DNA of 64,000 nucleotides from Alphaproteobacteria bacterium (GTDB lineage: Bacteria; Pseudomonadota; Alphaproteobacteria; CAISOG01): contig JBILMH010000001.1 in assembly GCA_044375625.1 (NCBI GenBank), positions 8,667-72,666 on the forward strand. Direction: 5' to 3'. Shown in pieces: positions 9,048 to 63,197 of this stretch; within the stretch, counting starts at the first letter, position 1, and the number at the start of each line of letters is the position of its first letter. The translations under genes and the position numbers were made by a program. The notes beneath the pieces are model-generated. The model was not told the DNA's origin. It saw only the letters and a list, made by a program, of their open reading frames with translations, and did no database searches.

Positions 9048-9857
9048 ATGAATAAAAGTTTTTTGAACAAAAATAATGTATTAATTGTTCCAATGGAACC
9101 TAGCAAGGAACAAATAGACTGGCTTGCTTTTAGGTGGGGTCATGTTAGAGATTATGAAGAGAATTTTGATAAACCTCTTCAAGAATTCAAAAATCTACCT
9201 CCGAATACAACGCAATTGTTTGTCATGTGTATGGCAGCGGAGGGTTGGAATGTTGAAAAAGCAATTTTTCGTCTAAATGAATTTGGCATTAATGATGCAA
9301 ATGCGATCGCGGCCGCTCAAAAAGATCTAGGTTTGTGCGATAATAATAACTTATTAGATGGAAAAGCTGTAAAAATAACAATGCCGTGTTTTATAGCGGT
9401 CGATTTAGTTGCGAATTCAAAAAAACTTTTAGAAGATGCCATCAAAAAATGCCCTGACTTTTTAAAAAAAGTGGATCTAAGATGTTCCAATATGCCAAAT
9501 ACTATTTTGCGACGTGCGGATCTTACAGAGACTGATTTCGAGGGAGCAAATCTTAAAGGTGCCGATTTACGTGAAGCAAACCTAGAAAAAGCTGTTTTGT
9601 GGAAAGCAAAAATGGTTTTTGCAAGAATAGGGCGCGGTATTGTTAATTCTAAGACGAATTTTACTGGGGTAAATCTTAGTGGTGTAACCAATTTACCATG
9701 GAATCCTGAGGTCAATCGCTTTGGTTATGTGTTTGCCAGAGGGGTTGATCGTACAACACGTCAGCAGATGTATGGCGAGGATAAACTCATAGGGGGACTG
9801 TCCAACATTTTAGAGGCGGGAAATAATGTGCTTAAGGCTTTTGGCCTTAACCGTTAG
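9048..9857 (+). CDS. pentapeptide-repeat protein (unique N-terminal domain + C-terminal pentapeptide block), AT-rich island
   Basis: The C-terminal part reads …ADLTETDFEGANLKGADLREANLEKAVL…. The gene body and its upstream region are ~35% GC, far below the flanking genes. Confidence 0.7.
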   Translation: MNKSFLNKNNVLIVPMEPSKEQIDWLAFRWGHVRDYEENFDKPLQEFKNLPPNTTQLFVMCMAAEGWNVEKAIFRLNEFGINDANAIAAAQKDLGLCDNNNLLDGKAVKITMPCFIAVDLVANSKKLLEDAIKKCPDFLKKVDLRCSNMPNTILRRADLTETDFEGANLKGADLREANLEKAVLWKAKMVFARIGRGIVNSKTNFTGVNLSGVTNLPWNPEVNRFGYVFARGVDRTTRQQMYGEDKLIGGLSNILEAGNNVLKAFGLNR

Positions 9858-14627: not shown

Positions 14628-15113
14628 CTAGCTTTTTTTATAAGCGGCGGCCAGTTGCCCCAAAGTTTCCTGTTGCCGCTTGGCGGCGATTTTGCCTAAA
14701 GAAGGCGGGCGTTCAATCGGTTTGGTCAATTGGCTAATGACAGTGACCGAACCGCTGGACGGCGCGCTGACGGCATCGGGCTGCGTATGACCCCAGGCCT
14801 GAACCACCTGATCAATCTGCTGTGCGGACAGGGCGGCATCAGATTTCGATAGGGAAGCGGAAGAGGTTGCAGGTTTTGCGTCGTTTTTGACTGAACCAGC
14901 GGCTTGTTGGCTAAAGCGATCGGCAATGCCATAGCTTTGCGCCACCTTTGCCACCATGCCAGAAACCGCGCCGTTAAGCCAGGGATCAACAATGGCCAGC
15001 AGCAGGCGGCTATCCTCACGGCAACGCTTACGCAACAACAAACTCGCCCGTTGATAGTCGTTATCGCTATCAGCAAGCGCCTCAAGAACCGCATCGGTTA
15101 GAACAGCAGACAT
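14628..15113 (-). CDS. hypothetical protein (161 aa, Ala/Ser-rich)
   Basis: Clean ORF between ccmF and atpD in the same orientation, with no recognisable motif. It sits where atpG would normally be. Confidence 0.4.
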   Translation of the reverse strand: MSAVLTDAVLEALADSDNDYQRASLLLRKRCREDSRLLLAIVDPWLNGAVSGMVAKVAQSYGIADRFSQQAAGSVKNDAKPATSSASLSKSDAALSAQQIDQVVQAWGHTQPDAVSAPSSGSVTVISQLTKPIERPPSLGKIAAKRQQETLGQLAAAYKKS

Positions 15114-15198
15114 AGAATTAAGAATGGCGCAATTTGGTTAAAAACTTGTTAAGGCAGGGGTGGGAGGGGGGCGCCCGACTTAAGGCGCATGTCTAGCC

Positions 15199-17265
15199 TT
15201 AGAGGGCTGGCGGCTGGTGCGAAATTGGCTTCAAAGATTGCCAGCTGCGGATGGCGCCTAGCCAGGCGGCCAGGGTGGCCAGCACGACTGCCGCCCACAG
15301 CCAACTTATCAGCGGGTTGATCAAGAATTTAATGGTTAAAGTGCCCGCCGCAATATCGGGTTGGCCAATGACCACATACAAATCGCGCCACAGTCCATAA
15401 TCTACGGCTGCCTCGCTGGTTACCATTTCCTCAACCTGATAGTGACGTTTTTCGCTGGTCAGCAAAATGGGGTGGCTGGAAGGATTATGGGCGGGGCGAA
15501 TGGCCACCACCGCCTGCCAAGTGCTATAATTTGCTCCGTTTTGGCCGATAGGAATTTCCCGCAACTGTTGCAGGGTTAGTTGATAGGAACCAGCAACCAC
15601 ACCCTTACCAGGCGCCAGTTTGACGATATAGGATTGCTGCCACAAGCTGGCGCCAACCATGCCGATAGCCGCCAACCCCGCGGCCAAATGTGCCAAAGCC
15701 ATAACCCGCCGTTGAGGTCGCCAAATCGGCGCCCAATTTTGGATAATTGCCAGTCCCCCCATGGCAACAATCACACCCCCCGCTATCCAATGCCAACCAA
15801 TCCACAGATTCAGTACGCTGGCCAAGACCAACAAAGCCAGGGCTGGCCAACGGTATCGCTTTAGGCCAGGTGATGTTGGTGATTTATCGGTTCGCGCCAA
15901 ATGTGGCAATCCGACCACCCCGCCTAGCAACAACAACAACAGGGGCACCACCATCTGCTGATAAAAATCGCCCGCCACCGCCATCGGGGAATCGGTAACC
16001 GTCTGATGCAGCAGGGGATAGGCGGTGCCCAGCAGCACGGTGACAGCGGTTAAGGCAAAAATTAAATAGCCAAACAACAGCCAGGCCGATGGCGAAAGCC
16101 AGGAGGTTTTGGTCGCCACGGGGGCTGTTGGGGCAACGGGGACGCGCAACGCGAATAAAGCAAGGCTGGCCAGGGTGACCACCGCCGTAATGGCCAGCAG
16201 CACACTACCCCTGGCAGGATCCAGGGCAAAGGCGTGGACAGAGGTTAACAGGCCGGATCGTACCAAAAACATCGCCAACAGCGTGCTGCCCAAGGTAAAA
16301 ATCGCCAAAAGATGGGGGGCAGATGCCCATGCAGCTTCCTGCACAGCTTGCACCTGTTGTTGACCCTGCTGCTGTTCTGATGGCTGTCGTTGCAAATTCA
16401 GGGCGTGCATCAGGGCGCTGGCAAACAGCCAGGGAATCAGTGCGGCATTCTCCACCGGATCCCAAAACCACCACCCGCCCCAGCCCAATTCCCGATAAGC
16501 CCACCAACTGCCCAGCGCGATCCCCAACGTTAACCACCCCCAGGATAGCAACAGCCATGGGCGCGCTAGGATTGTCCAGGCTGGTTCATCCCCGCTGCTT
16601 TCAGACGATGCGGTTGATACGGTGGTGGCGGCGAATGGGGTAGGGCAATGGTTGCCCAACAAGGCCGCTATCGATAGGGCAAAAGCGATGGTGATTCCTG
16701 TCAGGCCAAGGTACAGCACGGGGGGATGGATGGCCAGGCCAATATCCTGCAGCAAGGGGTTTAAGCCAGCGCCAGATTTAGGCGCAATCGGCAACCGCCA
16801 AAATGGGTTGGAAAGGATTAAGGCATAGCCTGTCAGCAGGATTTGTAGCCCCCCCAGAACCGCTAAGGCACGGCCAGTTAGCTTAGGAGCCAATCGTTGC
16901 GCGGGATGCCAGGCCAGCGCCGCCGCATATAATCCCATCCACAGCAGCCACAACAGCAGGGATCCCTCATGATTGCCCCAGGCGCCCGTGATGCGATACA
17001 GCAACGGGGCGTTGGCGTTGGTGTTTTGGGCGACATTCGCCAGGCTAAGGTCAACATTGACATAGGCCGCAATCAGACTGGCCATCGATAGGGTTAGGAC
17101 TGTGGCGTTTAGGCCAGCAATTTCAGGCAAAAAGCTGCTGAATCTTGGCCAAAAGCGACTGCCCGCCAACAGCTGTAGCCCTGCCAGACACAGGCTAAGC
17201 TGCAAAAGGGTTTGTCCCAAGTCACCGAAATCAACAAAACTGGTCATTATAGGGGCGTTTTCCAA
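15199..17265 (-). CDS. ccmF: cytochrome c-type biogenesis protein CcmF (heme lyase subunit)
   Basis: WWD-domain motif WGGWWFWDPVENAALIPWL; 688 aa polytopic membrane protein. Confidence 0.9.
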   Translation of the reverse strand: MENAPIMTSFVDFGDLGQTLLQLSLCLAGLQLLAGSRFWPRFSSFLPEIAGLNATVLTLSMASLIAAYVNVDLSLANVAQNTNANAPLLYRITGAWGNHEGSLLLWLLWMGLYAAALAWHPAQRLAPKLTGRALAVLGGLQILLTGYALILSNPFWRLPIAPKSGAGLNPLLQDIGLAIHPPVLYLGLTGITIAFALSIAALLGNHCPTPFAATTVSTASSESSGDEPAWTILARPWLLLSWGWLTLGIALGSWWAYRELGWGGWWFWDPVENAALIPWLFASALMHALNLQRQPSEQQQGQQQVQAVQEAAWASAPHLLAIFTLGSTLLAMFLVRSGLLTSVHAFALDPARGSVLLAITAVVTLASLALFALRVPVAPTAPVATKTSWLSPSAWLLFGYLIFALTAVTVLLGTAYPLLHQTVTDSPMAVAGDFYQQMVVPLLLLLLGGVVGLPHLARTDKSPTSPGLKRYRWPALALLVLASVLNLWIGWHWIAGGVIVAMGGLAIIQNWAPIWRPQRRVMALAHLAAGLAAIGMVGASLWQQSYIVKLAPGKGVVAGSYQLTLQQLREIPIGQNGANYSTWQAVVAIRPAHNPSSHPILLTSEKRHYQVEEMVTSEAAVDYGLWRDLYVVIGQPDIAAGTLTIKFLINPLISWLWAAVVLATLAAWLGAIRSWQSLKPISHQPPAL

Positions 17266-17419
17266 AAAAATGATGCTGTGGGCGGGTGCGAGTTATGGAT
17301 GATGCGTGAGGCGACTGCTAGGCTTAAGTTTTTGTTAAGCGCCTAAGGCATAAACTGATTTTGGTCAATGGTCGCATTTTCTCCTGCCATTTTCTTTTGC
17401 ACTTTATTTTGAGAATTTA

Positions 17420-17752
17420 ATGCCATCTGGATTCCTTCACCATCTATTTATGCAGTTTGATGCTATAGCCAAACGCCTGCCAGAAGATACTACAAAGGCT
17501 GGCGAAGGCATGCGGGAGGGTGTCCCATCCTGGTTCATTTTGTATGGATTGGATGAGCCAGGGGGGGAGCGGTTGCAGCAAAAGCACTTCAAAAGCTCAG
17601 GAATCACGGTAGATCAAATCAAATCCACCGAGGCCTTTAAAAATCTTATTGCGATAGGGGATCGGGCGGGTTTTCGCCTGGAATTGTCTGAGCAGGTTGA
17701 TCCCAATGACAGTGTTCCCGTCTATCTTTTGGTCGTAAGCGGCTGGGTTTAG
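17420..17752 (+). CDS. hypothetical small protein (110 aa) immediately upstream of pentapeptide-repeat gene
   Basis: ORF in a lower-GC pocket that ends 6 bp before the next gene start. No known motif. Confidence 0.4.
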   Translation: MPSGFLHHLFMQFDAIAKRLPEDTTKAGEGMREGVPSWFILYGLDEPGGERLQQKHFKSSGITVDQIKSTEAFKNLIAIGDRAGFRLELSEQVDPNDSVPVYLLVVSGWV

Positions 17753-17758
17753 GGGGCA

Positions 17759-19039
17759 ATGGCCATGACCAATCAATTGACAGATATCGAAAAAAAAATC
17801 CTGGAACACGAAGCGTGGGTTGATGGAGAGGAAACAGGATCTCGTTTGGTGCTTTCTGGTCGGTCCTTAGCAAGAATCCAAATGCCTAATCGCATGCTTA
17901 AGTCGGCAAAAATGATGGGTTGTGATCTGCAAGAGGGCAATTTTGCAGGAACCGATCTAAGTTTTTCAGATTTGTTTTGTTCCAATTTGGAACGCGCCAA
18001 TTTTTCCGAAGCCAATTTGATGCGTGCCAGCATGCGTGGGGTTAAAATTCGTAACGCCAATCTACGTGGAGCCAATTTAACGGAGGCCGATTTGCGGGCG
18101 GGGGCGATTGTTCGCCATGTTAATGAGGCCGCGGAAGAGGTCAGGACGGATCTGTCGTTCAGTCGGTTGGATGACGCCGTTATGCCCAATGTTAATCTAA
18201 ATGGCGCGGATTTGCGCAATGCCATCATGACAGGTGCTAACCTTAAAGGGGCTTATCTGCGCGGATGCAACTTGAGTTCCGTGGATTTGCGTAATGCGGA
18301 TTTATCCAATGTGGACTTGTCCAATGCTGATTTAAGCTTTGCCAATCTTAAGGGGTCATCCCTAAGCTATGCTGTCATCAGTCGTACCAGTTTTGACAAC
18401 GCTGTTGTTGATAATATGGATATCACGGGCACAGTCTTTGATGATAGCGCCCCGGCTGAACTGGTTGACATGCTGCAAGATAAAAGCCGCAACCAACCCC
18501 GCAAATTGGATGAGGTGTTGGCCAACCATGTGCAATGGATTGATTCACAGGGTGCCAAGGGGCAGCGGGCGATATTGGTCAAACGGGATCTTAGTAGTTT
18601 TGATTTGAATCATGTCAATCTTAGTGGGGCTGATTTACAAGAAGTTTTACTAATTGAGGCCAATTTGTTCCGTGCACTTTTGGTCATGACGAATCTTAGT
18701 GCCGCCAACTTGCGGGATGCCAATCTGTCCAAAGCCAATTTGGCTGGTGCCAATTTAACAGGTGCTGACCTTAGCCATGCCGATCTTAGAGATGCTGTTC
18801 TTAAGGCTATCATTTCGCGTGCCAGTAGTGCGCTCCCAGGTTCCAAATTGTGGCCAACCAACCTTAGCAATGCCAGGTTGGTGAACAGCAATCTTAATGG
18901 CGTGAATTTGACGGGGGCAAACCTGGCTGGTGCTGACCTTCGGGGAGCCAGCCTGCGTCGCGCCGTGCTTATAGGTGCCAATCTGACGGGGGCTAATATC
19001 GATAAAGCCGACTTCACCGATGCCATTTTGAAACAATAG
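17759..19039 (+). CDS. pentapeptide-repeat protein (426 aa), paralog of 53353..54723
   Basis: Long runs of A(D/N)LxxANLxGADLxxA…, with a central non-repeat linker (HVQWIDSQGAKGQRA). GC is lower than the flanks. Confidence 0.8.
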   Translation: MAMTNQLTDIEKKILEHEAWVDGEETGSRLVLSGRSLARIQMPNRMLKSAKMMGCDLQEGNFAGTDLSFSDLFCSNLERANFSEANLMRASMRGVKIRNANLRGANLTEADLRAGAIVRHVNEAAEEVRTDLSFSRLDDAVMPNVNLNGADLRNAIMTGANLKGAYLRGCNLSSVDLRNADLSNVDLSNADLSFANLKGSSLSYAVISRTSFDNAVVDNMDITGTVFDDSAPAELVDMLQDKSRNQPRKLDEVLANHVQWIDSQGAKGQRAILVKRDLSSFDLNHVNLSGADLQEVLLIEANLFRALLVMTNLSAANLRDANLSKANLAGANLTGADLSHADLRDAVLKAIISRASSALPGSKLWPTNLSNARLVNSNLNGVNLTGANLAGADLRGASLRRAVLIGANLTGANIDKADFTDAILKQ

Positions 19040-19294
19040 AGTGGATTGTTTGGGACTGTTTCTGGCTTTATGATTCTATAAGCAATTAAAAAACAATGAT
19101 TTTTTAATCGGGCTTGGCAGAGAGACGCGATTTGTTTATAGTCCGTTCCTATGGCTGTTCGATACACCAACGATCTTCCGATCCTATGCTTAACCAACCA
19201 GGCATTCATGCAGACGTTTACGCTAACCCCGTTTGCGTCTAAAGGAATGACTTCGTTAGGCGCCTGAGTCACCCTTTAGCTGTTAATGGTCGCA

Positions 19295-19756
19295 ATGCCC
19301 AAACCCAAACTGCTGCTGTTGCATGGTCCCAACCTAAATATGTTAGGTTTGCGTGAACCATCGATTTACGGATCGGTGACGATGGCGCAAATTGATCAAC
19401 GCTGCCAACAATTGGCATCTGAGCTGGGCTATGACCTTAACTGCCGCCAAAGCAACCATGAGGGGCAGTTGGTTGATTGGTTGCAGGCAGCCGCAGGCGA
19501 ATTTGTCGGCATTGTCATCAATCCTGGTGCCTACAGCCACAGTTCAATTGCCTTGCTGGATGCCATCCGCGCGATTAGCATTCCTGTTGTCGAGGTGCAT
19601 TTGTCCAACATCCATGCGCGGGAGGCTTTTCGAAGCCACAGCGTGACGGCGGCCGGCGTTGTTGGCCTTATCAGTGGCTTTGGTGCCGACAGTTACCTGC
19701 TGGGCGTTCGCGCCGTGGCACAGTTGTTGGCCGATTCTGTTTCTTCTTCATCCTAA
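19295..19756 (+). CDS. aroQ: type II 3-dehydroquinate dehydratase
   Basis: …[21 protein letters not shown]…[16 protein letters not shown]… (DHquinase II signatures). Confidence 0.9.
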
Positions 19757-21702: not shown

Positions 21703-22884
21703 ATGACCAGAAAAGAGCTCGAAAAGCTTTTACAGGCTGGTGAGTCTAATAAAATTGAGTTCAAAAGCAGATTCACTAAAGACAACAAATTGCCTCAGAC
21801 AATTTGCGCATTTGCTAATAATCTAGATGGTGATGGCAAACCTGGATATATCATTATTGGCATCAATAATGATAAAACATTTAGTGGATTGCGTGATACC
21901 GATCAAATACAAACGACAATTGCTGAATATCGTTCAAACGCTAACATTAATCCGTTGCCATCTATAAGTGTACAACTCATCTCATGTGACGAGGGTGATG
22001 TGCTGGTAGTAAAAGTAGAGCCTTCATCAACCCCACCTCTACGCTATGAAGGGGTGGTATGGGTTAGAACGGGATCCAGCACTAGGAGGGCAAATCCAGA
22101 AGATGAACGTCGGCTTTCAGAGAAACGAACATCTTTGACAAAAACTTTTGACGCTGAGCCATGTAGAGATGCTTCTGTTGATGATCTAGCATTGCGCTTG
22201 TTTGATGAGTATCGCGGGCACGCAGTCAATTCTAGCGTTATAGCCGAGAATCATCGAAGTACCGATGAAAAATTAGCCTCTTTAAGTTTTTTTGATTTGA
22301 AAAATCAATGTCCGACTTATGCAGGGATATTATTATTTGGCACCAATATTCGGAATTTTTTACCAGGAGCTTATGTGCAATTTCTAAAGTTTTCAGGTAG
22401 TGATATTTCGGATCAACCAGAAGACATAGATGAAATCAATGGAGATTTAAGGACGCTTGTTGACAGAGTTTATGAGAAAATTCGTTCACATAATCGTGTT
22501 TCTCTGGTCAAAGGTGAACGTTTTGTAGAGAAGAATGTTCCAGAATATCCCGAATCTTCTCTGCGAGAATTTTTGAATAATGCTATTATACATCGTGATT
22601 ATCAATCAAATACTCCAATTCGGTTTTATTGGTATGAAGATCGCATAGAAATTTCAAGTCCTGGTGGTCTTTATCCTCCTGTAACTTATGATAAAATTGA
22701 AAAAAGGACTGGCTATAGAAATCCAATTGTTGCAAATGCGATGAAAGAGCTGGGGTATGTCGAAAAATTTGGCCGTGGCATTCAGACTGCTCAAAAAGCA
22801 CTGCAGGATAATGGTAACCCAGCAGCAGAGATTGCAAGAGAAGAAGGGTTTTTTCAGGTGACAATTTATAGGCGGGAATCATGA
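21703..22884 (+). CDS. AlbA_2 (Schlafen-like divergent AAA) + HATPase_c_4 domain protein (often annotated as putative transcriptional regulator / RecG-C-like)
   Basis: N-terminus …ESNKIEFKSRF…ICAFANNLDGDGKPGYIIIGINND… (AlbA_2). C-terminus …REFLNNAIIHRDYQSN…IEISSPGGLYPP…YRNPIVANAMKELGYVEKFGRGI (HATPase_c_4). GC is ~40%. Confidence 0.7.
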   Translation: MTRKELEKLLQAGESNKIEFKSRFTKDNKLPQTICAFANNLDGDGKPGYIIIGINNDKTFSGLRDTDQIQTTIAEYRSNANINPLPSISVQLISCDEGDVLVVKVEPSSTPPLRYEGVVWVRTGSSTRRANPEDERRLSEKRTSLTKTFDAEPCRDASVDDLALRLFDEYRGHAVNSSVIAENHRSTDEKLASLSFFDLKNQCPTYAGILLFGTNIRNFLPGAYVQFLKFSGSDISDQPEDIDEINGDLRTLVDRVYEKIRSHNRVSLVKGERFVEKNVPEYPESSLREFLNNAIIHRDYQSNTPIRFYWYEDRIEISSPGGLYPPVTYDKIEKRTGYRNPIVANAMKELGYVEKFGRGIQTAQKALQDNGNPAAEIAREEGFFQVTIYRRES

Positions 22885-23918
22885 AGATTGTTGCATTTTT
22901 TAACAACAAAGGTGGGGTAGGTAAAACAACCCTTGTTTACCATTTAGCCTGGATGTTTTCGCGTAAAAAAATTAAGACACTGGCGGTTGATTTGGATCCG
23001 CAAGCTAATCTGACGGCTATGTTTCTGAAGGAGGAACAATTAGGAGAAATTTGGCCAGATGGTGAGCATCCTAAAACCATTTATGGTGCTATCCGTCCGC
23101 TTACCAAGGGAACTGGTGATGTTCTTGATAATCCGCATGTGGAAGAAATACCAGATGTTATTCTCGATATTCTACATGTGGAAGAAATAGCGGAGTCTTC
23201 TTTAGGTTTAATTCCTGGAGATCTAGGGTTATCGCTTTTTGAAGATAAATTGTCAGAATCTTGGCCTAAATGTCATAATGGAGATGAGTCAGCTTTTCGC
23301 ACCATGACGGCTTTTTACCGTATTATTGAAAAAGCTGCTAAAGGATATGATTTGGTGCTGGTTGATATAGGTCCGAATTTGGGAGCAATCAACCGATCCG
23401 CTCTTATTTCCTGCGACCACGTTGTGTTGCCCTTGGCGGCGGATTTGTATTCGTTGCAAGGACTAAAAAACTTAGGGCCAACGTTGCGAAGTTGGCGCAA
23501 GACCTGGGGGGAGTTAAAGTCTAAAGCTCCAGGTGATTTGTCATATCCTAGTGGCGATATGAAACCAGCTGGATATGTGGTGATGCAACATGGCGCCAGA
23601 AAGGATCGTCCAGTTAAGGCTTACGATCGTTGGATGGCCAAAATTCCTGAAGTCTATCGGAAGTTTATTTTGGCCGAAGAAAACCCTAACGAGACCATAA
23701 CCGTTAACGACGATCCGTATAAATTGGCTACACTTAAGCACTATCACAGCTTAATGCCATTGGCACAGCAGTCACATAAGCCAATGTTTGATTTGAAACC
23801 TGCTGATGGAGCCATTGGTTCTCATGTTGAGTCAGTACAGGGTTGTTATCGCGATTTTGAAGCTTTGGCGAAAAGATTGGCACAAGAGATCGAATTGGTA
23901 TGGCCAGATGGTGCCTAG
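22881..23918 (+). CDS. ParA/Soj-like deviant Walker-A ATPase (AAA_31/CbiA family) with ~120-aa C-terminal extension
   Basis: N-terminal MKIVAFFNNKGGVGKTTL… and DLDPQANLT. The start overlaps the upstream stop (ATGA), and the gene is in the same low-GC island. Confidence 0.7.
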   Translation: MKIVAFFNNKGGVGKTTLVYHLAWMFSRKKIKTLAVDLDPQANLTAMFLKEEQLGEIWPDGEHPKTIYGAIRPLTKGTGDVLDNPHVEEIPDVILDILHVEEIAESSLGLIPGDLGLSLFEDKLSESWPKCHNGDESAFRTMTAFYRIIEKAAKGYDLVLVDIGPNLGAINRSALISCDHVVLPLAADLYSLQGLKNLGPTLRSWRKTWGELKSKAPGDLSYPSGDMKPAGYVVMQHGARKDRPVKAYDRWMAKIPEVYRKFILAEENPNETITVNDDPYKLATLKHYHSLMPLAQQSHKPMFDLKPADGAIGSHVESVQGCYRDFEALAKRLAQEIELVWPDGA

Positions 23919-53352: not shown

Positions 53353-54723
53353 TTGTTGCTGGGGAAATCGATGGCTGGTTCAAAACATTCGGTGTCGTCA
53401 AAAGAACTGATAGCACAGATTCTTAGCCATAACAGTTGGCTTGCAGGGCGGGCAGGATCCAGAGCCAATCTGTCGTTGATGGATCTAAGTGGTTTGGGGC
53501 TAAGTTCCATCAACCTTAGTCAGGCTAAGATGGATGGCGCCAACCTGACCAGCGCGCTGTTGGTGGAAACCAACCTTAGCCAGGCCGATTTGTTTGCATC
53601 GAATCTAACAGGCTGTGATCTTAGGCAGGCAAAATTGGTTGATACCAATCTGCGTGGCGCCGTGTTGTATAAGGCGGATCTTCGCCGGGCGGATCTAACG
53701 CGGATAGATTTGCGTCCAGGAGCTTTTTTAACCCATTTTTCTAAAAAACAGGCAGCGAAGGAGAAACCCTCAGCATCGAACAAAATTTCTGAACCCGTTG
53801 CGAATTTGCAGCGGGCAAAGCTGGATGATGCCCTGATGGTTGATGCTTTGCTTTGTTACGCCGATTTTAACGGCGCATCGTTGCAGCGTATCAATTTAAC
53901 TGGTGCTGATTTAACCGGTGCAGACCTTAGCAATGCTGACCTTACGGGTGCCTGTTTGCGTAACGTCAAATTGGCTCAAGCCCGCATTCATAATACGATT
54001 CTGCGTAACGCCGACCTTACAGGCGTGCTGATATCCGATGAACAGCTACAAGCGATGGATCTTTTTGGCGCTTATGCAAGATTGCCTGTAGTGGGTAAAC
54101 AATTGGCTGTCGAAGAATCGGATGTCGATATTTCAGAAAAAATTCTTCGTAGCCTAAGCGTGAATTTGCAAGATTGTATTAGGCAGCATGAGCAATGGGT
54201 TCAGTCGGGGGGTGTGCATGGCAAGCGTGCTGATCTTTCTAACCAAAACCTTCAGGCACTTAGATTGGATTCATTGAATTTAACAGGTGCAAAGCTGGCC
54301 AATTGCCAATTGCAATCTGCCAGTTTGGTTAAAGCCGTCTTAACCATTGCCGATCTGCGCGGAGCTGTTTTGTGTGATGCCGTGCTGGAGGATGCGATGC
54401 TGGAGGGCAGCAATTTATCGGGCGCGAATCTTAAGGGGGCAAATCTTAAGGGGGCGCGCCTAGCCAGCAATGCCCATCGGGCAACCAACCTTTCCAACGC
54501 CAATTTGCAGCATGCGGATTTAAGCGGCGCTGACCTTAGTCATACCAATTTAAGAAATGCCGATCTTCGCAATACCAATTTGGCGCGCACCAATTTGTCG
54601 GGTGCAGACCTTAGTGATGCAAACCTTAGCGATACATTGTTGGATAAAGCGGTTTTGAATGGCGCCATTCTGGACAATGCCAAATTTGGTCTTAGTGAAT
54701 CCATGGCCGCCATCATCAGCTAA
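53353..54723 (+). CDS. pentapeptide-repeat protein (456 aa), paralog of 17759..19039
   Basis: Extensive A(D/N)LxxxNLxGA repeats and a central linker HEQWVQSGGVHGKRADL resembling the HVQWIDSQGAKGQRA linker of the other copy. GC is lower than the flanks. Confidence 0.8.
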   Translation: MLLGKSMAGSKHSVSSKELIAQILSHNSWLAGRAGSRANLSLMDLSGLGLSSINLSQAKMDGANLTSALLVETNLSQADLFASNLTGCDLRQAKLVDTNLRGAVLYKADLRRADLTRIDLRPGAFLTHFSKKQAAKEKPSASNKISEPVANLQRAKLDDALMVDALLCYADFNGASLQRINLTGADLTGADLSNADLTGACLRNVKLAQARIHNTILRNADLTGVLISDEQLQAMDLFGAYARLPVVGKQLAVEESDVDISEKILRSLSVNLQDCIRQHEQWVQSGGVHGKRADLSNQNLQALRLDSLNLTGAKLANCQLQSASLVKAVLTIADLRGAVLCDAVLEDAMLEGSNLSGANLKGANLKGARLASNAHRATNLSNANLQHADLSGADLSHTNLRNADLRNTNLARTNLSGADLSDANLSDTLLDKAVLNGAILDNAKFGLSESMAAIIS

Positions 54724-62525: not shown

Positions 62526-63197
62526 TTATCTTAAATTCGTATTTCTGAATTGTCCGACATTCCATTCAATTTGAGTGTTTTGTGCTGATGCAGCTTGGCG
62601 TTTTTGTGCTTTTCTTAAGCCTTCTTCATCCAAGGCATTAACATAGGTTTTTGAATCCAAAGTAGTAATAAAAGCTTGTCTAGCTGCCTCATCATTATAA
62701 ATAGCAAATTGCACATTCATTTTTCCACCTGCGAGACTAAATTGATGCAACGCAGACATCATTGTTCTGGCTGACTGTTCATCGGTAAGTTCGCCCAAAA
62801 AGCCTGTTCCCATAGCAGGTACAGCAATAGATTGAAGTTGGTGTTCTTCTGCAATTTTTAAAGCATTATAGAAACCTGTTTGAACAACTTTAAACTCATT
62901 GTTTTTTCCAGAACATACAGAGGCCACATGAATATGATATCTTGCGTTTCCGCCTCCCTCAGTTAACAGTACCGTCCCAAAATTCTGAGGCCCCGTTTCG
63001 CGCAAAAAGCGTCGATATAAATCTAGCCCATTTTTACCACCTGCTTTTTCTATTGCGCCTGCAACACCATCATCTGATGCCTTATCGTTGAAGTGTGGGA
63101 TTATATATGCATCAACAGCTAATCTTGTCATGCTCCCGTCGAATATCGTGACTACATTTTCTTCAACTTTTCCTTCGTGTCCAGAATAAAAGATCAT
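62526..63197 (-). CDS. macro-domain protein (ADP-ribose binding/processing), standalone, in AT-rich pocket
   Basis: Macro motifs: …VDAYIIPHFNDKASDDGVAGAIEKAGG…, …TVLLTEGGGNARYHIHVASV…, …IAVPAMGTGFLG…. GC is ~40%, with AT-rich flanks. Confidence 0.7.
   Translation of the reverse strand: MIFYSGHEGKVEENVVTIFDGSMTRLAVDAYIIPHFNDKASDDGVAGAIEKAGGKNGLDLYRRFLRETGPQNFGTVLLTEGGGNARYHIHVASVCSGKNNEFKVVQTGFYNALKIAEEHQLQSIAVPAMGTGFLGELTDEQSARTMMSALHQFSLAGGKMNVQFAIYNDEAARQAFITTLDSKTYVNALDEEGLRKAQKRQAASAQNTQIEWNVGQFRNTNLR

Follow-up and report, generated by a model that had tools for sequence, protein, structure and literature searches.

The stretch of DNA analysed here, called the window, is 64,000 nucleotides of contig JBILMH010000001.1 from an alphaproteobacterium, and the locus of interest at 17420..19039 holds two adjacent genes. 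A small open reading frame (ORF) is followed directly by a gene for a pentapeptide-repeat protein (PRP), here called PRP-A. A second PRP gene of the same architecture, PRP-B, lies 36 kb from the pair. When each is taken as the longest ORF, the three reading frames have the coordinates and lengths given in the first-pass annotation. The genes and the junction are as follows.

17420..17752, plus strand: small ORF; orphan gene product of 110 aa, 12.3 kDa, pI 5.3 (5.26), with an invariant C-terminal G-W
17751..17756, plus strand: Shine-Dalgarno-like AGGGGG overlapping the stop codon (TAG) of the small ORF; putative translational-coupling junction
17759..19039, plus strand: PRP-A as the longest ORF (426 aa); likelier start at ATG 17765 (424 aa); Pfam PF00805, E 9.5e-70
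53353..54723, plus strand: PRP-B as the longest ORF (456 aa); likelier start at ATG 53371 (450 aa); two-module PRP, small-ORF partner absent

The gap between the small ORF and PRP-A was initially given as 6 bp, which holds for the longest PRP-A frame. A gap of 12 nt is more likely, because the PRP-A orthologs are 424 aa long and begin where PRP-A has its second ATG, at 17765, and because the AGGGGG run lies 8 nt before that ATG. The start of PRP-B is most likely ATG 53371, which stands behind GGGGAAA and gives 450 aa. The lower GC of the three genes was confirmed: GC content at third codon positions (GC3) is 0.51 for the small ORF, 0.49 for PRP-A and 0.48 for PRP-B, compared to a window median of 0.64. 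The clear low-GC islands of the window, with GC3 of 0.27-0.38, are far more deviant.

The ratio of nonsynonymous to synonymous divergence (dN/dS) was determined against two orthologous loci, L001 and L003 (related loci carry L numbers). It is 0.07-0.10 for the small ORF, at dS 0.8-2.0, and 0.04-0.08 for PRP-A. Both are real genes under purifying selection, and these values rule out a chance origin of the small ORF. No match to the small protein was observed in Pfam, NCBIfam, PHROG or PADLOC, or by sequence and profile comparison with the PDB. An exhaustive profile search of 1.84 billion representative proteins returned four clusters only, all belonging to the small ORF's own family, and a profile search of a set of 5.8 billion clusters returned eight. 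The members are 100-134 aa in length, or shorter gene-call fragments, and neither domain fusions nor stand-alone copies were found in the two sets. A genome scan with a small-ORF alignment (A1) gave two contigs only, both from metagenome-assembled genomes (MAGs); one close relative carries the label of an uncultured Holosporaceae MAG. The AlphaFold2 model of the small protein had a confidence score (pLDDT) of 66 with five close sequences, rising to 84 after three distant homologs were added. The product is predicted to be a lineage-restricted 12-kDa alpha/beta protein.

Every small-ORF homolog that could be placed on a contig (27-95% identity) has a two-module PRP directly downstream. This is so for all four representatives from the 1.84 billion proteins, and for each cluster that was looked up out of the eight from the 5.8 billion. 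The distance from small ORF to PRP ranges from -10 to +68 nt across lineages, and from -10 to +15 nt in the loci linked to ccmF. Close relatives (81-95% identity) share the order ccmF (divergent), small ORF, 424-aa PRP, aroQ, accB, accC, with a gap of 10-15 nt between small ORF and PRP in L001 and L003. In L007, whose small-ORF homolog is 43% identical, ccmF is kept upstream and the downstream genes differ; the PRP there begins either 10 nt inside the small ORF or 2 nt past its end. The most distant homologs (27-31%; L009, L010, L037 and L038) are found in the order resistance-nodulation-division (RND) efflux pump, 414-418-aa PRP, small ORF, 417-427-aa PRP. In two marine-type loci, L010 (207-7670) and L037 (1-4566), the pump (membrane fusion protein, MFP, plus ACR_tran) is directly upstream and on the same strand as the PRP-small-PRP cluster. 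The PRPs of these two loci are only 48-50% identical, and their upstream PRPs are strongly acidic, with net charges of -16 and -19. The pair is thus observed in three genomic contexts, ie ccmF/aroQ, ccmF/other and RND pump/PRP-small-PRP. The operon or partnership that had been suggested from the single locus is supported by the purifying selection and by the presence of a downstream two-module PRP in all homolog-bearing lineages, and the small gene and the PRP probably form a dedicated two-protein unit.

The PRPs linked to a small ORF group in one clade of a neighbour-joining tree, with PRP-B outside it. A sequence feature of module 2, the W-P bulge, is present in every full-sequence PRP that stands beside a small-ORF homolog (PRP-A, the PRPs of L003 and L007 and both PRPs of L010), and absent from PRP-B and the stand-alone family members in a nine-protein alignment. 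Both L037 PRPs carry the bulge motif with its P replaced by A or Y. Upstream of PRP-B there is a SIMPL/DUF541 gene, which ends 100 nt before it, and no small ORF; three more distant family members, in unrelated contexts, also have no small-ORF partner. On the sequences compared, the small ORF is thus a partner of a single PRP clade, and the expectation that a small ORF would be conserved upstream of the paralogs failed for PRP-B and held throughout the orthologous clade. The search for PRP-A homologs was swamped by repeat-sharing proteins and missed even orthologs of 85-92% identity, which were recovered through the contigs that carry the small ORF. A search of JGI metagenomes for PRP-B orthologs gave only repeat-level matches of 24-48%.

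PRP-A and PRP-B match PF00805 with E-values of 9.5e-70 (230.1 bits) and 2e-67 (222.4 bits), respectively, against a cut-off of 20.2 bits. Each protein has 61-62 pentapeptides in register, arranged in PRP-A as 61 repeats in four runs; runs of 13-20 contiguous A(D/N)LXX repeats compare with the eight or more that define the superfamily. Module 1 consists of 34 repeats interrupted by a loop, of 10 residues in PRP-A and 22 in PRP-B. Module 2 consists of 27-28 repeats interrupted by a bulge of 5-6 residues. The parts of the two proteins that are not repeats are listed below.

17777..17854, plus strand: PRP-A cap 1, the N-terminal helix motif LTDIEKKILEHEAWVDGEETGSRLVL before module 1; aligns with the PRP-B linker motif (fourth BLASTP segment pair); its H is invariant in the family alignment
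18116..18145, plus strand: loop HVNEAAEEVR in module 1, after the conserved DLR-x-G; D109, R111 and G113 invariant
18446..18613, plus strand: PRP-A non-repeat linker between the modules; holds the cap-2 motif HVQWIDSQGAKGQRA at 18527-18571
18809..18856, plus strand: module 2 bulge, with the clade-specific motif (K/R)-(L/V/F)-W-P-x-N-L, from the alignment of family members
54187-54231, plus strand: PRP-B cap-2 motif HEQWVQSGGVHGKRA, which aligns with HVQWIDSQGAKGQRA of PRP-A

The proposal that the two PRPs are members of a paralogous family with a shared architecture was upheld by BLASTP, in which they align collinearly over the full length at 35% identity. E-values for pairs of PRPs are inflated by the repeats, and the non-repeat parts were therefore compared as well. 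The non-repeat linker aligns between the two proteins, and its H255, W258 and G263 (H-x2-W-x4-G) are invariant across nine diverged family proteins, so that the linker homology extends beyond the repeats, as first claimed. The same nine-sequence alignment, which includes Stellaceae and metagenomic relatives of 29-35% identity, shows no variation at the H of the N-terminal cap or at the D, R and G of the D-x-R-x-G before the module 1 loop. The cap motif H-x2-W-x7-G-x-R-A precedes both beta-helix modules in PRP-A and in PRP-B; its module 1 copy, which the first-pass annotation had missed, is at residues 13-31. Since the N-terminal sequences ILEHEAWVDGEETGSR and ILSHNSWLAGRAGSRA can be aligned with the linker motif of the respective protein as well (fourth BLASTP segment pair), each protein is an internal duplication of a helical cap and a beta-helix. 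Among the 120 best database hits the mid-protein cap motif occurs once in 24, and three more have it twice, N-terminally and mid-protein; 27 of the 120 thus agree in its relative position. The linker homology is genuine, and the architecture (cap 1, looped module 1, H-x2-W-x4-G linker, bulged module 2, approximately 400-450 aa) is common to many 400-440-aa PRPs, mostly alphaproteobacterial. PRP-B is an old paralog of PRP-A and not a recent duplicate.

PRP-A and PRP-B resemble the solved members of the PF00805 superfamily (right-handed quadrilateral beta-helix, Rfr fold) in their A(D/N)LXX-type repeats and in their alpha-helical caps, which are the norm in solved PRPs (PMC8145042), but they differ in having two capped modules per chain joined by a conserved non-repeat linker. 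Of 16 solved PRP structures, 13 consist of one PRP domain capped by helices at its ends, and three are multi-domain (PMC8145042). The cap motif itself was not found in solved structures, as the PDB matches span the repeats only. The closest likeness is to the uncharacterised two-module PRPs of other alphaproteobacteria (Stellaceae P0114, Azospirillum P0099, and metagenomic P0018, P0023 and P0049), which share the length of 400-440 aa, the module order, the DLR-x-G loop and H-x2-W-x-S-x-G at 29-35% identity. Unlike PRP-A, these stand alone, with neither a small upstream partner nor the W-P bulge. Both PRPs and the small protein start with what read as hydrophilic helices, which argues for a cytoplasmic location of all three. 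In this they differ from the Caulobacter crescentus YjbI, also an alphaproteobacterial PRP, whose role is regulatory and not enzymatic; YjbI has a secretion signal, a helix flanked by two conserved Cys pairs, and a charged tail at its C-terminus (PMC12864828). The N-termini of PRP-A and PRP-B, MAMTNQLTDIEKKILEHEAW and MAGSKHSVSSKELIAQ, have no hydrophobic h-region, and the proteins have 3 and 6 scattered Cys, no flanking Cys pairs and no charged tail.

Totals of 177 and 161 bits against the Alr5209 model (NF052603) exceed its cut-off of 125 but are sums of five separate partial matches of a 113-position repeat profile; the Alr5209 equivalog is a 129-aa, four-coil PRP, the query proteins are of 426 and 456 aa, and these totals were not taken as membership. 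The HetL model (NF047416, cut-off 260) gave 164 bits with PRP-A, below its cut-off. As regards partner proteins, the nearest parallel is the mfp conservon of Mycobacterium, in which the cytoplasmic PRP MfpA is encoded in an operon with small proteins, MfpB-E, that bind or regulate it, and in which MfpB, MfpC and MfpD act on MfpA (PMC3575795, PMC9769811, PMC11343762). Compared to the mfp and HetL partners, the small protein lacks the defining features; there was no P-loop or GTPase domain match, for example.

A third pentapeptide-repeat gene is present in the window at 9048..9857 on the plus strand (269 aa, PF00805 E 4e-18, GC 0.38, GC3 0.30). The first-pass annotation had not noted it. Roughly the first 140 aa of its product form an unrelated domain, the protein falls outside the two-module family, and the gene is probably a recent acquisition. 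A relation of the small ORF to that N-terminal domain was considered and ruled out (hhalign probability 0.1).

The divergent spacer between ccmF and the small ORF is 154 nt long and holds a block, starting at the inverted repeat GCTTAAGTTTTTGTTAAGC, that is conserved among relatives despite dS of approximately 2. The features upstream and downstream of the pair are given next.

17322..17340, no strand assigned: inverted repeat GCTTAAGTTTTTGTTAAGC with a CtrA-type box TTAA-N7-TTAA at 17324-17338; 82 nt upstream of the small ORF; unique in the window
17341..17375, plus strand: conserved upstream block GCCTAAGGCATAAACTGATTTTGGTCAATGG; kept in L001, L003 and L012 despite near-saturated synonymous sites (dS approximately 2)
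19114..19142, plus strand: sigma-70-like promoter before aroQ-accB-accC, TTGGCA-17-TATAGT, with 10 matches out of 12; also conserved in L001 and L003
15138-15152, 17324-17338, 49367-49381, 54329-54343, 54733-54747, 62206-62220 and 63208-63222: TTAA-N7-TTAA sites in the window

TTAA-N7-TTAA is the core of the alphaproteobacterial CtrA box (PMC9437464, PMC7200025). The repeat that contains it is identical in L001, L002, L003, L005, L006, L012 and L013. In the diverged L007, where the rest of the spacer cannot be aligned, TTAACAATCTGTTAA is found 41 nt upstream of the small ORF and is the sole such site in 12.3 kb. The box is thus kept in eight related loci, with a last base of G or T, not C. It was not found in the RND-linked loci. 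The seven sites of the window compare with 0.75 expected, and six of the seven lie outside large ORFs, where shuffled non-ORF sequence gave a mean of 0.27; together they suggest a recognisable CtrA regulon in this organism. One of them is situated just past the PRP-B stop, upstream of icd. Cell-cycle control of the small-ORF/PRP operon through CtrA is a lead, not proof. The block GCCTAAGGCATAAACTGATTTTGGTCAATGG is probably the core promoter or operator of the operon; a similar sequence, TTAAGCCCACATGGCAT, is found upstream of the first PRP in L010. A scan for sigma-70 consensus promoters upstream of the small ORF scored none, a terminator scan after PRP-A gave none, and an Rfam scan of 17100-19400 returned no match at E<=1. 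The promoter at 19114..19142 likely marks the 3' limit of the two-gene unit, and its conservation suggests that the pair is a unit of its own. A block of about 100 nt in the PRP-A/aroQ spacer (19114-19210) is conserved in L001 and L003 despite dS of approximately 2; it consists of that promoter followed by CCTATGGCTGTTCGATACACCAACGATCTTCCGATCCTATGCTTAACC, and the consensus fold from three sequences is weak. Lying upstream of aroQ-accBC, the block could represent a leader, encode a small RNA or contain a short reading frame (MAVRYTND...).

Several other features of the window were recorded. Between atpD/atpC and ccmF there is a 161-aa ORF at 14628..15113 on the minus strand, with no Pfam match and a 160-aa gene at the equivalent position in L001. 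A conserved TTAA-N7-TTAA stands just upstream of it, and the site at 15138 is conserved in L001, L005 and L006 with one spacer base different. Low-GC islands are present at 21703..23918 and 62526..63197 (GC3 0.27-0.38). The first gene of the former has SLFN_AlbA_2 and HATPase_c_4 matches only through its homologs in L005 and L006, and the second encodes a ParA-like AAA_31 ATPase; the latter encodes a Macro-domain protein. The relatives L005 and L006 carry the 21703..23918 island too, immediately behind accC, and it may be a defence or mobile cargo element. In L005 and L006, which are JGI contigs, all genes of the syntenic region are in short fragments (ccmF, atpD, accC, recA and the PRP), which looks like a frameshift-rich long-read assembly rather than pseudogenisation.

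The best explanation for 17420..19039, in which we have a little more than even confidence, is that its two genes form a translationally coupled operon whose products are a PRP scaffold and a partner subunit peculiar to the lineage. A functional partnership of the two proteins is distinctly probable, and the chances that they form a direct complex are about even. PRP-A would be a cytoplasmic double PRP comprising two right-handed quadrilateral beta-helix rods, of approximately 8.5 and 7 coils, each opened by the alpha-helical cap and interrupted by one loop. The small protein, which would be produced in step with the PRP, may bind it, with the W-P bulge of module 2 as the candidate docking site, and may tune or direct its activity as a rigid scaffold that serves to dock or to decoy some other macromolecule of the cytoplasm. 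The analogy would be with MfpB modulating MfpA, or with HetL binding PatS-type peptides. In the ccmF-linked lineage, transcription is probably from the promoter with the CtrA-type box, and expression may then follow the cell cycle. PRP-B, with the same architecture, would work without a small partner. There is precedent for operon partners of PRPs in the mfp conservon (PMC3575795, PMC9769811).

A number of points weigh against the two-gene operon. Co-transcription and binding of the pair, like the scaffold or decoy role and control by CtrA, are what we infer from the sequences. Most PRPs of the wider family, PRP-B included, do without the small gene, and the 68-nt gap in L010 indicates that coupling is not universal. 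Sampling is thin, with approximately four diverged lineages carrying the pair, all of them metagenomic, and shared ancestry rather than selection could be behind part of the synteny. The box sits in a divergent intergenic region and could equally serve ccmF; it matches the full CtrA consensus, TTAA-N7-TTAAC, at 8 of 9 positions. The predicted fold of the small protein matches nothing, and its role could be that of an adaptor, an inhibitor, a chaperone or an enzyme.

The thin set of lineages, all known from alphaproteobacterial metagenome contigs, and the many family members that have no small gene would also be expected if the adjacency were inherited synteny without function and the small gene an unrelated, lineage-specific neighbour. 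We consider this improbable, as the pair persists while its flanks change (ccmF/aroQ; ccmF/LolA side; RND/TusA or RND/aromatic lyase), the small proteins have diverged to 27-31% identity, the junctions are short or overlapping, and a small gene was never encountered without a PRP. Protection of topoisomerase is another possible function, in which the rods of the PRP would imitate DNA and attach to gyrase or topoisomerase IV in the manner of Qnr, MfpA, McbG and AlbG, regulated by the small protein, and in some lineages the genes would form a self-protection or resistance unit with the adjacent efflux pump. Each module is Qnr-sized with one helix-interrupting loop, as in Qnr and AlbG (PMC8145042), the location would be cytoplasmic as in Qnr, AlbG and McbG, and the models of Qnr, MfpA and HetL are matched in part. 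The PRP-small-PRP cluster follows a same-strand RND pump in two related lineages whose PRPs are only about 48-50% identical, and the upstream PRPs of these pump-linked loci are the acidic ones. Such a pump-adjacent PRP recalls McbEFG and AlbF/AlbG. However, the scores indicate generic repeat similarity only: PRP-A and PRP-B give 85.3 and 83.5 bits with the Qnr model (NF033086, cut-off 240), and 75.4 and 92.2 bits with the MfpA model (NF000349, cut-off 360). Qnr proteins are defined by a single beta-helix of approximately 215 aa with loops A and B, and MfpA by approximately 183 aa and the mfp conservon with its GTPase MfpB. PRP-A and PRP-B are instead covalent two-module chains, not proteins of 180-220 aa that dimerise through a C-terminal helix, and are near-neutral (net charge -5 and -1). 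In addition, the context in the window is housekeeping (ccmF, aroQ, accBC), with neither pump nor toxin biosynthesis genes. This function is on balance unlikely for the pair, and a type II topoisomerase or other DNA enzyme is equally unlikely to be the target of the two-gene operon.

The first-pass annotation had offered a chaperone and its effector as one form of the operon, which can be read as a secretion chaperone with a secreted PRP effector of a host-associated bacterium. The small protein is acidic, of 12 kDa and encoded just upstream of its putative cargo, one close relative bears the Holosporaceae label, and PRP-A partially matches the models of PipB2 and PipB. Both of these PRPs are Salmonella effectors. 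The scores, however, are 123 bits against a cut-off of 354 (PipB2, NF011743) and 119 against 274 (PipB, NF011744), and small size and acidity, although typical of class I chaperones of type III secretion systems, are nonspecific. In a structure comparison the small protein did not have the alpha-beta-beta-beta-alpha-beta-beta-alpha fold of such chaperones. No secretion-system genes were seen among the genes of the window that were examined, the PRP family is also present in free-living Azospirillum and Stellaceae, and the stable core-gene context and strong purifying selection are unlike those of fast-evolving effectors. The idea, which rested on size, acidity and one MAG label, has fold, context and selection against it and is very unlikely. 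Less likely still is a toxin-antitoxin or anti-phage pair in which the small first gene would supply the antidote and the larger second gene the effector. The tight small-then-large gene order, the GC3 below that of neighbouring genes and the other low-GC islands nearby would suit it; but there were no PADLOC matches at E<=0.1 for the small ORF, PRP-A or PRP-B, and no PHROG matches. The ccmF/aroQ synteny is kept to dS of approximately 2 with no mobility genes alongside, and the PRP-small-PRP order of other lineages is not like that of a toxin-antitoxin system. No PRP is known to have a toxic enzymatic activity.

A more ambitious version of the two-gene operon, which we regard as doubtful, gives the small protein a fold not seen before and makes it the subunit that regulates, or confers specificity on, a novel two-component PRP system of Alphaproteobacteria. 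CtrA would switch this system on at a particular stage of the cell cycle. The doubled rod and its adaptor would then bind a machine connected with DNA or the envelope, acting as a mimic of DNA or as a decoy, and in the marine relatives the core would be duplicated (PRP-small-PRP) and coupled to an RND pump.

The small-protein/PRP pair contradicts no expectation, and the PRPs themselves are ordinary members of the superfamily. The novelty lies in the orphan small protein and in how strictly it is tied to a single PRP clade; literature searches turned up no account of a pair of this kind. PRPs are known in tens of thousands, of which a handful have a function, and nearly all of those were solved through a partner protein: gyrase for Qnr and MfpA, PatS/HetR for HetL, kinesin for PipB2 and GlgC for CipG. 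A strictly co-inherited, translationally coupled orphan partner would be an experimental handle on one clade of an opaque and widespread alphaproteobacterial PRP family, and the CtrA box adds a testable regulatory input to the locus. If the partnership is not physical, the locus would amount to two conserved hypothetical genes in a core-genome neighbourhood. If it is, a new small fold would be defined and the use of double-module PRPs would be revealed.

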